Below, piece by piece: positions 14,689 to 19,051 of a stretch of DNA of 32,765 bases. The stretch's first letter is position 1. Every line of letters starts with the position of its first letter. Under the pieces are notes generated by a model, which was given only the letters and a program-made list of their open reading frames with translations, did not search any database and was not told where the DNA came from. Origin of the DNA: an uncultured Bacilli bacterium (GTDB lineage Bacteria; Bacillota_I; Bacilli_A; RF39; UBA660); contig CALVVI010000003.1 of the NCBI GenBank assembly GCA_944363815.1, positions 1 to 32,765 of the forward strand. Direction: 5' to 3'. Both the position numbers and the translations under genes were made by a program.

Positions 14689-14853
14689 GTGCCATAAAAT
14701 TTTGTTAATTTAAAAAATTATTGATAGTACTTGTGATTTTTTGTAATTTTTGAAGATTTTTTTGCAAAAAAACAAAGGAAATTTTAAAAAATACTGATTT
14801 GCGTTAATTAAAATGTTTTGCTATTATAGGATAAATTTATTACAAGGAGATTT

Positions 14854-15738
14854 ATGAATTATTATAATGAAATAAAAAACGAACTAATAAATAATGAAAT
14901 AACCAAAAAAGTAAAAGATTATAGTAAAAACAGAAGTGATTTAACTACATATTACAATGTTGGCAAGTTGCTTAGTGAAGCAGGTAAGCGTTATGGTGAA
15001 GGTATTATTAAACAGTACTCAATAAAATTAACAAATGAACTAGGAAAAGGTTATACAATTACTAGACTAAAATATATGAGACGATATTATGAAGTGTTGA
15101 CAAAAGGTCCGACATTGTCGGACCTTTTGAGTTATTCACATTATTGTGAATTGATTTGGTTTGAAGATTTTAATAAAATAGAATATTATATAAAAATAAC
15201 TATTGAACAAAATTTATCTGTTAGACAGCTTCGGGAACGAATAAAAAATAAAGAATATGAAAGATTAGATGATATTACTAAAGAAAAATTAATATCTAAA
15301 AAAGTAACTACAGTAGAAGATTTTATTAAAAATCCTATTGTTATTAAAAATAACAATAATAGAGAAATTATTTCTGAAAAAGTATTGCAAAAGCTTATAC
15401 TTGAAAATCTTCCATTTTTTTTAAAAGAATTAGGTAATGGTTTTACATTTGTTGAAAATGAATACAAGATAAAAATAGGTAATAGCTATAATTATGTTGA
15501 TTTTTTACTATTTAATTATGAATTTAATTGTTTTGTAGTAGTTGAACTTAAAGTAACTGAACTTAAAAAAGAACATATAGGTCAAATAGAAGTATATATG
15601 AATTATATAGATAAAAACTTAAGAAAAATAACTCAATATAAAACTATAGGAATTATTATATGTAAGAAGGATAATAAATTTATCACGGAATATTGTAGTG
15701 ATTCTAGAATACTTAGTAAAGAATACAAACTGGTTTAG
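14854..15738 (+). CDS. DUF1016/YhcG-family PD-(D/E)XK nuclease, copy 1
   Basis: YYNVGK, LSYSHY, LSVRQL, FLKELGNGFTFV, VDFLLFN, VVVELK, GQIEVYMNY, TIGIIICK. Confidence 0.9.
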   Translation: MNYYNEIKNELINNEITKKVKDYSKNRSDLTTYYNVGKLLSEAGKRYGEGIIKQYSIKLTNELGKGYTITRLKYMRRYYEVLTKGPTLSDLLSYSHYCELIWFEDFNKIEYYIKITIEQNLSVRQLRERIKNKEYERLDDITKEKLISKKVTTVEDFIKNPIVIKNNNNREIISEKVLQKLILENLPFFLKELGNGFTFVENEYKIKIGNSYNYVDFLLFNYEFNCFVVVELKVTELKKEHIGQIEVYMNYIDKNLRKITQYKTIGIIICKKDNKFITEYCSDSRILSKEYKLV

Positions 15739-15747
15739 GGGGTACAA

Positions 15748-16629
15748 ATGAATTATTATAAGGAAATCAAAAATGAACTAATAAATAATGAAATAACTAA
15801 AAGAGTTAAAGATTATAGTAAAAATAGAAGTGACCTTACTGCTTACTATAATGTTGGCAAGTTACTTAGTGAAGCTGGTAAACATTATGGTGAAGGTGTT
15901 ATTAAAGAATATTCTGAAAAGTTAATTAAAGAACTTGGAAAAAAATATTCTTATAGATCACTAAATTATATGTTAAGATTTTATAATTTTCAAAATTTGC
16001 AGTCAATAACTGCAAATTTGACATGGGGACATTGGATTGAATTACTTTCAATTAAAGATATCAATAAGATAAAGTATTATATTAAACAATGTGAAAACCT
16101 GTTGTTAACGACTAGACAATTGCGTGAACGAATAAAAAATAAAGAATATGAAAGGTTAGATGAAGTTACCAAAAGTAAATTAATAGATGATGTTTCTCCA
16201 ACAATTGTAGACTTAATCAAAAATCCCATTGTTATAAAGAATAACAATAATAAAGAAATGCTTTCAGAGAAAGTGTTGCAAAAGATTATATTAGAAGATT
16301 TAGATGATTTCTTAAAAGAATTAGGTGATTCATTTTGTTATATTGCTAATGAATACAAAATAAAAATTGGTAATAGCTATAATTACATCGATTTACTCCT
16401 TTATAATATTAAATTTAATTGCTATGTTGTAGTAGAACTAAAAGTAACTGAACTTAAAAAAGAACATATTGGTCAAATAGAAGTATATATGAATTATATA
16501 GATAAAAACTTAAAAGGTGTTATGCAAGATAAAACAATTGGAATTATTATATGTAAGAAAGATAATAAATTTATAATGGAATATTGTAGTGATAAAAGAA
16601 TTTTAAGCAAAGAATATCAACTTATATAG
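15748..16629 (+). CDS. DUF1016/YhcG-family PD-(D/E)XK nuclease, copy 2
   Basis: Same motifs (LTWGHW, IDLLLYN, VVVELK). Confidence 0.9.
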   Translation: MNYYKEIKNELINNEITKRVKDYSKNRSDLTAYYNVGKLLSEAGKHYGEGVIKEYSEKLIKELGKKYSYRSLNYMLRFYNFQNLQSITANLTWGHWIELLSIKDINKIKYYIKQCENLLLTTRQLRERIKNKEYERLDEVTKSKLIDDVSPTIVDLIKNPIVIKNNNNKEMLSEKVLQKIILEDLDDFLKELGDSFCYIANEYKIKIGNSYNYIDLLLYNIKFNCYVVVELKVTELKKEHIGQIEVYMNYIDKNLKGVMQDKTIGIIICKKDNKFIMEYCSDKRILSKEYQLI

Positions 16630-16636
16630 GAGGATT

Positions 16637-17527
16637 ATGAATTATTATAACGAAATAAAAAATGAATTAATAAATAATGAAATAACTAAAAGAGTAAAAG
16701 ATTATAGTAAGAATAGAAGTGACTTAACTACTTATTATAATGTAGGTAAGTTACTTAGTGATGCTGGTAAACATTATGGTGAAGGCGTTATTAAAGAATA
16801 TTCTGAAAAGTTAATTAAAGAACTTGGAAAAAAATATAGTATAAGAGTTTTATACAAGATGCTGAAATTTTATAATTTTATAACGGATAAAAAATTGCCG
16901 ACAGTGTCGGCAAAATTGACTTGGAGTCATTTTGATGAATTATTAAAACTTAAAAATATTAATTCGATATATTATTATATGTTAATATCTGATCAACAAA
17001 ATTTATCAGTAAGACAACTTCGTGAACGAATTAAAAATAAGGAATATGAAAGATTAGATGATATTACTAAAGAAAAATTAATGTCTAAAAAAGTAACTAC
17101 AGTAGAAGATTTTATTAAAAATCCTATTGTTATAAAAAATTCCATTAATAAAGAAATAATTTCTGAAAAAGCATTGCAAAGAATTATTATGGAAGATTTA
17201 CCATCTTTTTTAAAAGAACTAGGTAATGGTTTTACATTTGTTGAAAATGAGTACAAAATAAGAATAGGTAATAGTTACAATTACATTGATTTATTACTTT
17301 ATAATATTAAATTGAATTGTTATGTAGTTGTAGAACTTAAAGTAACTGAACTTAAAAAAGAACATATTGGTCAAATAGAAGTATATATGAATTATATAGA
17401 TAAAAACTTAAAAGATATTATGCAAGATAAAACAATTGGAATTATCATATGTAAGAAAGATAATAAATTTATTATGGAATATTGTAGTGATAAAAGAATA
17501 TTAAATAAAGAATATAAATTTGTATAG
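16637..17527 (+). CDS. DUF1016/YhcG-family PD-(D/E)XK nuclease, copy 3
   Basis: Same motifs (LTWSHF, IDLLLYN, VVVELK). Confidence 0.9.
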   Translation: MNYYNEIKNELINNEITKRVKDYSKNRSDLTTYYNVGKLLSDAGKHYGEGVIKEYSEKLIKELGKKYSIRVLYKMLKFYNFITDKKLPTVSAKLTWSHFDELLKLKNINSIYYYMLISDQQNLSVRQLRERIKNKEYERLDDITKEKLMSKKVTTVEDFIKNPIVIKNSINKEIISEKALQRIIMEDLPSFLKELGNGFTFVENEYKIRIGNSYNYIDLLLYNIKLNCYVVVELKVTELKKEHIGQIEVYMNYIDKNLKDIMQDKTIGIIICKKDNKFIMEYCSDKRILNKEYKFV

Positions 17528-17559
17528 AAAAAACAGATTAAATGAATGGAGGTAATTTA

Positions 17560-18885
17560 ATGTTAGATGTTATTGAAGATATAAGAAATGAATTTAAAAT
17601 AAAATTAACTGATGATTTAGAAAAAGAAGTAATTGCTTTTTTAAATACTCAAGGAGGCAATATATTTATTGGAGTTGATGATACTGGTAATGTTGTTGGG
17701 CTTAATTTAGATGTAGATTTGTTACAAAGAACAATAAAGGATCGTATTAAAGATAATATTATGCCATCAACAATAGGTTTATATGATGTTGCAGTATTAG
17801 ATTATGAAGATAAAAAATATATTAAAATAATTGTTGCTAGGGGAGTAGAAAGACCATATTATTTAAAAGGGATGGGGATGACTCCAGAAAGTTGTTTTAT
17901 GCGTGTTGGTAGTGCAGTTCAAAGTATGCCATATGATATTATAAATAATACTTTTGTAAAAAGGGTTAGAAATTCATTAAAGAAAATAGAATCTCCAGAG
18001 CAGGATTTATCTTTTACGCAATTGAAAATATATTATGAAGAGAAAAAAATTATTGTTAATGATAATTTTTTGAGGCAGTTAGGTTTTTTCACAGATGATG
18101 GTTTATATAATATGAATGCATTTTTGCTTTCTGATAATAACAATATTCCCATTAGATTTGGAAAATATAGTGGGACACAAGCAATTGATTTGATAGAAAA
18201 TGAAGATTTCGGTTGTTGTTCTATTGTTAAGGCAACTAAAAGTATGTTAGAGAAACTAAAGATAGAAAATAAAATATATACTAAAGTAGGGTATCCACAG
18301 AGGAAAGAAATTGAAATGTTTGATTTTGATGCAGTTAGAGAAGCGGTCATTAATGCTATTGTTCATAATGATTGGGCGAATGGTTATGCTCCAAAAGTAG
18401 AAATGTTTAGTGATAGGTTAGCAGTATCATCAAATGGTGGTATACAAGATAATATAACTGAGGAAGATTTTTTAAAGGGATTTTCTTTGCCTAAAAATCC
18501 TGAGTTAATGAAAGTATTTAGAGATTTGGAATTAGTAGAACAAATGGGTACTGGAATTATTAGAATTCTTAAAAGTTATTCTAAGCAATCTTTTGAATTT
18601 TTCCCAAATTTTATAAGAGTCAGTTTTCCCTTTAAGAAAAACAAATTTGATGAATCAAAGAAAATGGAGTTTAAAGATAAAGTTAATTTATCTATTACGC
18701 AGCAAGCAATTGTTAAATTAATGAGTGATAATCCTAGAATTACTCAAAAAGAGTTAGCTAGACTTTTAGATATTACAGTTAGAGCAATACAAAAAAATAT
18801 AAAGTCCCTTATTGATTTAGGTGTAATTCAAAGATGGGGATCAGATAGAAAGGGAAAATGGAAAATCAATTCTAATAATTTATAG
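17560..18885 (+). CDS. AlbA_2 (Schlafen-like) + HATPase_c_4 + C-terminal wHTH protein
   Basis: NEFK...KEVIAFLNTQGGNIFIGVDD; REAVINAIVHNDW; VEQMGTGI; ITQKELA...RWGSDRKGKW. Start at 17560 after GGAGG. Confidence 0.85.
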   Translation: MLDVIEDIRNEFKIKLTDDLEKEVIAFLNTQGGNIFIGVDDTGNVVGLNLDVDLLQRTIKDRIKDNIMPSTIGLYDVAVLDYEDKKYIKIIVARGVERPYYLKGMGMTPESCFMRVGSAVQSMPYDIINNTFVKRVRNSLKKIESPEQDLSFTQLKIYYEEKKIIVNDNFLRQLGFFTDDGLYNMNAFLLSDNNNIPIRFGKYSGTQAIDLIENEDFGCCSIVKATKSMLEKLKIENKIYTKVGYPQRKEIEMFDFDAVREAVINAIVHNDWANGYAPKVEMFSDRLAVSSNGGIQDNITEEDFLKGFSLPKNPELMKVFRDLELVEQMGTGIIRILKSYSKQSFEFFPNFIRVSFPFKKNKFDESKKMEFKDKVNLSITQQAIVKLMSDNPRITQKELARLLDITVRAIQKNIKSLIDLGVIQRWGSDRKGKWKINSNNL

Positions 18886-18897
18886 TATTAGAATTGA

Positions 18898-19051
18898 TTT
18901 TCTACGAACTTTTCTACGAACTTTTCTACGAACTTTTCTACGAACTTTTCTACGAACTTTTCTACGAACTTTTCTACGAACTTTTCTACGAACTTTCTTA
19001 CGAACTTTTCTACGAACTTTCTTGCGAACTTTCTTACGAACTTTCTTACGA
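18898..19051. repeat. 12-bp tandem repeat (TTTTCTACGAAC / TTTCTTACGAAC), 12 full copies + 1 partial
   Basis: Read directly: first 8 units identical, later units degenerate; no spacers. Confidence 0.98.

Follow-up and report, generated by a model that had tools for sequence, protein, structure and literature searches.

Three tandem plus-strand genes of the DUF1016/YhcG family (Pfam PF17761 and PF06250; COG4804) lie immediately 3' of ftsA and ftsZ, at positions 14854-17527 of a 32,765-nucleotide stretch of DNA from an uncultured Bacilli bacterium (GenBank assembly GCA_944363815.1, contig CALVVI010000003.1, positions 1 to 32,765; hereafter, the window). Each gene contains, within its coding sequence, a palindrome different from those of the other two, and these palindromes, to which an earlier note on this DNA drew attention, are the subject of this analysis. 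All three proteins match DUF1016_N (78.6-80.8 bits; cut-off 32.8) and YhcG_C (115-125 bits; cut-off 32.5), with E-values for paralog 1 of 1.3e-22 and 2.8e-33, and all three match the PADLOC candidate defence family PDC-S02 (E 6.6e-61, 5.9e-58, and 4.4e-62 for paralogs 1, 2, and 3). The complete Pfam set of the three proteins is DUF1016_N, YhcG_C, HSDR_N_2, and NucS_C; the Pfam scan yielded neither an HUH Y1 transposase domain nor a KilA-N family match. Judged from an AlphaFold2 model of paralog 1, the nuclease part is a PD-(D/E)XK domain of NucS/Hjc type: it resembles NucS (2vld_B; VIA-align Z 9.3), its PD-(D/E)XK residues D216 and K233 are invariant among 101 sequences, and the VVELK motif is the same in the three window copies.

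Re-reading the window sequence recovered the three palindromes at the positions and with the arms first described (Table 1). Each is centred on the first base of a codon, and in a protein alignment the three codons share one column, four codons 5' of the motif L(S/T)(W/Y)xH, so that the shared centre just before this motif also stands. At the pairs designated d1 to d8, counted outward from the centre, the paralog 2 palindrome, with its longer centre, retains 7 of 8 pairs. The region is hypervariable, as had been claimed: nucleotide identity between pairs of paralogs drops from 85-98% at the gene ends to 45-69% over amino acids (aa) 61-120. A search for further copies found each exact palindrome once only in the 1.116-Mb genome.

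Table 1. Positions of genes, palindromes, and predicted DNA-reading segments in the window (d5, d7, d8: arm bases counted outward from the palindrome centre; HTH, helix-turn-helix)
Feature	Positions	Strand	Description or basis
DUF1016/YhcG paralog 1, 294 aa	14854..15738	+	Predicted ParB-like DNA-binding head plus PD-(D/E)XK nuclease
Candidate HTH-domain segment of paralog 1, aa 57-132	15022..15249	+	Profile match, AlphaFold2 helices, VIA-align
Paralog 1 candidate recognition positions T70, K73, Y74 (codons 70-74)	15061..15075	+	Covary with d7, d8, d5
Paralog 1 palindrome	15101..15129	.	CAAAAGGTCCGACA-t-TGTCGGACCTTTTG; 14-nt arms, 100% complementary; centre 15115, codon L88
DUF1016/YhcG paralog 2, 293 aa	15748..16629	+	Pfam DUF1016_N, YhcG_C
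Paralog 2 candidate recognition positions R70, N73, Y74 (codons 70-74)	15955..15969	+	Alignment, residue-base rules
Paralog 2 palindrome	15993..16019	.	AAATTTGCAGT-caata-ACTGCAAATTT; 11-nt arms, 5-nt centre; middle 16006, codon I87
DUF1016/YhcG paralog 3, 296 aa	16637..17527	+	Pfam DUF1016_N, YhcG_C
Paralog 3 candidate recognition positions R70, Y73, K74 (codons 70-74)	16844..16858	+	Alignment, residue-base rules
Paralog 3 palindrome	16895..16913	.	TTGCCGACA-g-TGTCGGCAA; 9-nt arms; centre 16904, codon V90

A palindrome is present at the equivalent codon in all 11 DUF1016_N matches of the source genome (28.6% GC), with differing sequences and with arms that range from 14 nt down to 5 (the copies on contigs C41 and C77 are imperfect and have only a 5-bp perfect core). 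In the whole genome, only 10 odd-centred palindromes are perfect over arms of 8 nt or more and have an arm GC content of at least 0.4; four are in DUF1016 genes, and eight are in genes of DNA-binding families. Several of the 11 matches lie at contig ends, the copy on contig C89 contains stop codons, and in relatives, which hold up to 9 DUF1016_N matches, many are broken. Elsewhere in the genome (C34:10115), a sequence one mismatch away from the C89 site proved to be an ordinary intergenic terminator.

Relatives were drawn from 80 loci of gut Bacilli, 30 loci from 399 sampled genomes of the same class, and 80 loci from many phyla collected with a second query alignment. In a 78-nt segment placed by a motif anchor, the best perfect palindrome fell at the identical base in 62/74, 14/21, and 46/56 genes of these three sets, respectively. 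Among the 153 distinct regex-anchored genes of the pooled sets (one of them a false match on contig C13), 137 keep 7 or all 8 of the Watson-Crick pairs d1-8 about the fixed centre, and in most of the other misses the palindrome is shifted by an insertion or is even-centred. The motif anchors missed 13, 9, and 25 loci in the three sets; a second look, guided by a hidden Markov model, at the 51 loci that lacked a distinct anchored gene found 7 or more of 8 pairs within ±15 nt in 42 of them, mostly at offset 0. Palindrome-bearing genes occur in Bacillota, Bacteroidota, Planctomycetota, Cyanobacteria, Actinomycetota, Omnitrophota, and DPANN archaea. In E. coli K-12 yhcG (NC_000913.3; L122:8098-8257) the equivalent linker contains three tandem palindromes, one with 15-nt perfect arms, that have AATT flanks and a common ACAGAC inner core and differ in their outer bases; the usual WxH motif is absent from this gene. 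The results show that the palindromes, far from being peculiar to the array in the window, are a feature of the family. One relative (L056; CAKOQV010000025.1) is a natural site-less variant, in which an in-frame internal deletion has removed the palindrome together with the helices that follow it.

The symmetry exceeds what the encoded peptide demands. In 102 homologs, pairing at d1-8 is 0.86 at the fixed centre, as compared to a mean of 0.31 (sd 0.06; maximum 0.53) at other centres in the same genes. When the peptide was held fixed and synonymous codons were resampled from the usage of genes of like GC content, pairing fell from 7.17 to 3.27 of 8, far below the symmetry observed, and in 133 of 149 genes no more than 1% of resamples attained the observed pairing. 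At single codons, 118/138 genes have A as the wobble base of codon -5 (background 38%), and 124/125 have G as that of codon -4 (background 17.5%). Because synonymous third positions are fixed by complementarity, selection acts on the DNA as well as on the protein. The arms have a GC content of 0.59, vs. 0.23 for the rest of the gene, and are GC-rich in 77/77 AT-rich genes.

The pattern of departures from symmetry bears on the kind of nucleic acid under constraint. Mismatches at d1-8 in the 102 genes comprise 23 G·T, 22 A·C, and 35 others, so that neither strand shows a tolerance of G·U pairs. The pairs beside the single central base are kept in 80% (d1) and 94% (d2) of genes, and these two pairs could not form in the loop of a hairpin. 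The lack of a G·U strand bias, together with pairing that extends up to the central base, argues for a two-fold symmetric site in duplex DNA; the sequences point to a constraint on duplex DNA and not on RNA or on a hairpin of either RNA or DNA. The earlier note had proposed selection on DNA or RNA structure beyond the protein: the DNA half of that proposal is upheld by the synonymous positions, and the RNA half finds no support, a G·U bias being absent. Reading the sequences by eye, without a formal -1 frameshift test, revealed no conserved slippery heptamer.

The variable part of the protein had been described as HTH-like, and profile and fold comparisons agree. A profile of eight genome copies matches B. 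subtilis Spo0J (ParB; 6sdk_A) in the PDB with an E-value of 1.5e-4, aligning DUF1016 aa 57-132 with the parS-binding HTH region of Spo0J, residues 120-195. The AlphaFold2 model of paralog 1, built with 101 sequences (predicted local distance difference test score, 84), has helices at residues 51-63, 69-84 (the recognition helix), 94-100, 106-119, and 123-131, and in this model the residues that the palindrome encodes, 85-93, form the loop between the recognition helix and the next helix. With VIA-align, aa 1-141 of the model matched the ParB DNA-binding domain in complex with parS (6s6h_B; Z 8.7; 114 residues aligned), Spo0J (1vz0_A; Z 8.3), and KorB in complex with its operator (1r71_A; Z 6.9). 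Foldseek against the PDB returned matches to the nuclease domain only (best E 1.1e-3), so that the head was matched by VIA-align alone, and a Pfam search with isolated head fragments at E up to 10 returned DUF1016_N and chance rows only. The three window proteins have no match to ParB_N (the ParB/Srx CTPase domain) at E up to 0.001, and the two true ParB genes of the genome match this domain at 1e-36 and 5e-34; without a ParB_N domain, the protein is not a ParB but carries a ParB-like head. On the strength of the profile match and the predicted fold, we take the head to be ParB/KorB-like, the likeness being moderate. A homodimer prediction scored 0.30 against a mark of 0.42, a value uninformative either way. 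According to the available portions of Jalal et al. 2020 (PMC7383237), ParB contacts parS through the recognition helix α4 and through α6 and α8.

If the palindrome is the site of the head encoded by the same gene, then the residues that touch DNA should covary with the bases of the palindrome. In an alignment of 137 genes, some 250 protein columns, with column entropy of at least 1, were each scored against every arm base. Background columns explain 0.05-0.45 of the entropy of a base, and neighbouring columns of equal variability explain 0.2-0.38. Outside the residues that the palindrome itself encodes, only five columns (columns 23, 26, 27, 54, and 84, which are residues 70, 73, 74, 98, and 123 of paralog 1) explain more than half of the entropy of a base, and each does so for one base: T70 for d7 (0.53), K73 for d8 (0.78), Y74 for d5 (0.61), C98 for d4 (0.73), and V123 for d3 (0.73). 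In the model, the recognition helix presents residues 70, 73, and 74 on the same face, and the helices that carry residues 98 and 123 correspond in the alignment to ParB α6 and α8; these three elements are the ones through which ParB touches parS.

The contingency tables of these columns look like direct readout. In column 23, Arg goes with G (35/35) and Thr with T (26/28). In column 26, Lys, Arg, or Gln goes with G in 68/78 genes and with A in 9 more (7 of these having Gln), Phe, Tyr, Trp, Asn, Ser, or Thr goes with T (43/46), and Glu goes with C (6/6). In column 27, Asn goes with A (41/42) and Arg with C, that is, with G on the other strand (32/35); in column 54, Arg goes with C (24/24; 28/28 when Lys is included); and in column 84, Lys or Arg goes with C (15/15) and Val or Ile with A (90/97). 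Such pairings agree with known amino-acid-base preferences. The three window genes obey the rules: paralog 1 has T70 with T at d7, K73 with G at d8, Y74 with C at d5, C98 with G at d4, and V123 with A at d3; paralog 2 has R70 with G at d7, N73 with T at d8, and Y74 with A at d5; and paralog 3 has R70 with G at d7, Y73 with T at d8, K74 with C at d5, and Asp with G at d4.

The rules hold separately in each of two subfamilies that are about 30% identical, a short gut-Bacilli subfamily (77 genes) and a canonical subfamily of many phyla (60 genes). Independent pairs of genes, taken across supported branches of a FastTree phylogeny in which the head region was masked, co-change in one direction throughout the pair tests listed (same vs. 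opposite: 16.1 vs. 0 in 18 pairs, p 3e-5; 12.4 vs. 0 in 13; 12.9 vs. 0 in 14; 9.2 vs. 0 in 11), and one block among the listed tests of columns 27 and 54 has 6 same and 0 opposite. In 39 held-out genes, which lay outside the derivation of the rules yet are related to the training genes, the rules predicted d7 in 30/36 (baseline 7/36), d8 in 29/32 (baseline 11/32), and d5 in 28/30 (baseline 20/30). The coupling, moreover, tracks the nucleotide in preference to the loop residue: the genes with G at d8 encode Cys, Gly, Arg, Ser (AGY), or Trp at that place in the loop, all with Lys, Arg, or Gln in column 26; Ser encoded by AGY pairs with Lys, Gln, Val, or Ile, and Ser encoded by TCG pairs with Glu (2/2); and Glu pairs with C regardless of the loop residue.

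We conclude that the palindrome is probably, at a rough probability of 0.65-0.7, the cognate duplex-DNA site of the ParB-like head encoded by the same gene; the proposal of a gene's own, parS-like site thus gains the backing of covariation between recognition helix and half-site. According to this proposal, each gene would encode a ParB/KorB-type HTH head (~aa 57-132) joined to a PD-(D/E)XK nuclease, and the 17-19-bp palindrome in the loop-coding stretch would be bound, with two-fold symmetry, by the gene's own head; both the binding of the protein to the site and its binding as a dimer are steps that we infer. Residues 70, 73, and 74 (paralog 1 numbering) would read the outer bases d7, d8, and d5, and residues 98 and 123 and the x of WxH, on later helices, would read the inner bases d4 and d3. 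The different reading residues of the paralogs, with their matching different sites, suggest that each paralog is addressed to its own gene.

Several points weigh against this proposal. The VIA-align scores of the head (Z 8.7, 8.3, and 6.9) are of a size that helical domains may attain through a common arrangement, Raf1 chains scoring alike, and hhalign found little likeness to the ParB encoded by the same genome (E 0.0067; probability 5.7%; 39 columns). Held-out prediction is weak for the inner bases, at 19/32 vs. a baseline of 14/32 for column 54 with d4 and 28/38 vs. a baseline of 26/38 for column 51 (the WxH residue) with d3. Coevolution of the reading residues with the residues of the palindrome-coded loop could still be at work, the informative Ser TCG class consisting of 2 genes. 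The genes share ancestry, and if the head moves by recombination as one block, co-change would look exaggerated on a tree built from the remainder of the protein; the pattern of one column for one base argues against such inflation, although not decisively. Finally, each gene has a single site, extra copies within ±2.5 kb having been found at 1 of 44 loci, which gives little hint of what the site is for.

Three other explanations of the palindromes were weighed. According to the first, which we regard as improbable, the palindrome is a self-perpetuating quasi-palindrome without function, in which intrastrand template switching copies one arm onto the other in a loop that tolerates the changes. 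Symmetry that reaches the very centre, mismatches without strand bias, and arms that diverge among close paralogs and yet stay matched are all as template switching would have them. It leaves unexplained, however, why five residues 10-35 codons away predict single bases (Arg/Lys with G, Asn/Gln with A, Glu with C), why the arms are GC-rich in every one of the AT-rich genes, and why most of the palindromes (8/10) and hairpins (6/9) of this genome lie in genes of DNA-binding families. Template switching may instead be the route by which both arms of a protein-binding site change together.

According to the second, which seems to us no better founded, the nuclease cuts its own palindrome, as duplex or as cruciform, and so promotes gene conversion, exchange of modules, or spread of its gene, much as in REP/RAYT or homing systems. 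Consistent with cutting are an Hjc/NucS-type nuclease domain, the 11 copies in the 1.1-Mb genome (many at contig ends), the many broken copies in relatives, and the mosaic make-up of the paralogs, in which aa 121-210 are common to paralogs 1 and 3 and aa 41-70 and 221-290 to paralogs 2 and 3. Chicken-gut contigs assembled from one DNA run also join paralog 1 to paralog 3 (15308->17108 and 15776->17537), skipping about 1.8 kb; such joins indicate that the copy number of the tandem array varies through recombination between paralogs. These joints, however, and the mosaic breakpoints lie in conserved, near-identical flanks, away from the palindromes, so that the suggestion of the earlier note that the palindrome is a recombination point for specificity swapping is not borne out. 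Shared flanks together with distinct aa 61-120 suggest that recombination keeps the flanks alike and leaves each paralog with a head-plus-site module of its own. Against cutting also stand the scarcity of dispersed or flanking copies, each site being unique in the genome, and the lack of an HUH or transposase domain. Since cutting presupposes binding, this explanation is a variant of the purpose of the site and not of its identity.

The third, a structured nucleic acid (a stem-loop in mRNA, antisense RNA, or single-stranded DNA that would serve as a processing site, stabiliser, attenuator, or antisense terminator), is very improbable: GC-rich stems, a conserved Lys codon that places an A-run before many stems (A:T at d12-13, ~90%), and a paralog 3 palindrome that scores as a terminator-like hairpin on the minus strand, followed by TTTTTT, speak for it, and against it speak G·U-compatible mismatches in no excess on either strand (23 vs. 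22), innermost pairs useless to a hairpin and conserved through synonymous positions, covariation with protein residues that it leaves unexplained, and an Rfam search of 14700-17700 at E up to 10 that returned one chance CRISPR-DR row (E 3.3), the antisense terminator itself having been dropped because paralogs 1 and 2 have no T-run beside their palindromes.

The purpose that we propose for a site bound by its own head, self-recognition in cis that travels with the open reading frame (ORF), is the most speculative part of this account. Binding might serve autorepression, as an intragenic roadblock, of a toxic nuclease gene that often lies, promoter-less, within other operons; or the palindrome might be an aba-like mark of self-immunity, by which the nuclease is kept inactive on whichever replicon bears its gene. 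A single site that is always inside head-coding DNA, in a family often found within other operons, suggests that the inseparability of protein and site is what matters. A bolder version, which we hold to be doubtful, is a self-addressed defence in which the head, ParB-like and programmable, reads a 17-19-bp name tag written in its own DNA, the tag marks the replicon as self, and untagged DNA is open to attack. In such a system the tag would park or silence the nuclease on the replicon that carries it; a tag written inside the head-coding DNA could not be separated from its protein by recombination; tandem paralogs with different tags could act side by side without cross-talk; and the residue-base rules would be a natural, readable code, with ORF6N, RhuM, and Bro-N genes perhaps working likewise.

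The closest parallels are ParB/Spo0J with parS, Noc with NBS, and KorB with OB, in which the same type of HTH reads a two-fold palindrome of ~16 bp; in DUF1016/YhcG, such reading is a prediction. As given in the accessible text of Jalal et al. 2020, ParB-type proteins owe their specificity to a small number of residues, borne by the recognition helix and by the helix after it, and one B. subtilis parS is located inside the parB gene (PMC4442127, likewise available in part). DUF1016/YhcG differs in having no N-terminal CTPase domain, a head that is fused to a nuclease, an odd-centred palindrome, one site per gene, within the head-coding DNA and at one fixed codon in nearly all members, and sites of extreme diversity (79 distinct 17-mers among 137 genes). 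A second parallel is BstA, a defence protein that is suppressed by a cognate DNA element, aba, which overlaps the bstA gene (Owen et al. 2021, PMC8585504; seen in part, as are the following statements on aba). There, as is proposed here, the gene of a defence-type DNA-binding protein overlaps its own short cognate element, each variant having its own, and the element acts as DNA; unlike the DUF1016 palindromes, aba spans the start codon (29 bp upstream and 34 bp coding) and has terminal direct repeats and no palindrome. The head of BstA is KilA-N-like, whereas that of DUF1016 is ParB-like, and self-immunity is shown for aba and is a conjecture for the DUF1016 palindromes.

An intragenic roadblock operator is known in E. 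coli purB, where a palindrome in the coding sequence is bound by PurR, a dimeric HTH protein that blocks elongation. PurR is encoded elsewhere and its site lies outside its own gene, with no family-wide co-evolving code, points in which DUF1016 differs. REP/REPIN sequences and their RAYT proteins resemble the present case in that short GC-rich palindromes are linked to a cognate nuclease-type gene; here, the palindromes have no dispersed copies, the window proteins have no HUH domain, and the palindrome is an ancestral, position-fixed part of the gene and not an insertion. Hotspots of template switching at quasi-palindromes, reportedly described by the Ripley model and studied in E. coli thyA and with lacZ reporters, also keep arms alike by copying, which may explain the in-step change of arms; unlike the DUF1016 palindromes, they reflect a mutational process with no link to protein residues, from which no residue-base code is predicted.

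No published description of a palindrome or of a ParB-like head in DUF1016/YhcG genes was found in the accessible parts of the literature covered, which included Kosinski 2005 (PMC1189080), Gillespie 2014 (PMC4316617), and Milman 2023 (PMC9881135), subscription journals and supplements being outside the scope; nor do the parts of this literature that treat DUF1016/YhcG report an experiment on the family. As far as its available text goes, Milman et al. 2023 finds DUF1016 enriched 17-fold beside restriction-modification genes targeted by inversion. DUF1016/YhcG is a very widespread and wholly uncharacterised nuclease family that is over-represented in restriction-modification and defence loci and has a member in E. 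coli K-12, and the proposed relation of head and palindrome, if true, would provide the first concrete and cheaply testable handle on it, a predicted DNA ligand for each family member. It would also make available natural pairs of protein and site by the dozen, related by a simple residue-base code and of possible use in studies of specificity evolution and as orthogonal DNA-binding parts, and a clear case of a DNA site that dictates part of a protein sequence. It would hint, too, at a general design in which the site of a binding domain is placed within the DNA that encodes this domain, a design that other defence-linked DNA-binding families may have in common.

Long perfect GC-rich palindromes inside genes are found elsewhere in the same genome, at G000:C5:16913-16937, C5:17810-17838 (also C5:18262), C16:4148-4172, and C15:13836-13864. 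Their carriers are two ORF6N genes and a fragment, a RhuM+Fic gene, and a Bro-N gene, all of defence-linked DNA-binding types, and 6 of the 9 hairpins that lie deep inside ORFs genome-wide are in DUF1016, ORF6N, RhuM, or Bro-N genes. Among ORF6N relatives, a crude motif search that caught only 10 genes in 30 loci found perfect arms of at least 8 nt in 6 of the 10.

A 336-nt contig from a chicken-gut metatranscriptome is identical to positions 15704-16039, across the junction of paralogs 1 and 2; being an assembled contig alone, it carries no information on transcript ends, strand, or level and offers at most a weak hint of their co-transcription. The gene that follows the array (17542-18885, plus strand) encodes a protein with Schlafen AlbA_2, HATPase_c_4, and winged-HTH domains, of a type frequent in defence islands. 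Beyond it, positions 18898-19044 consist of 12.2 copies of a 12-nt tandem repeat, TTTTCTACGAAC, whose translation is (FYEL)n in what is probably not a genuine ORF.

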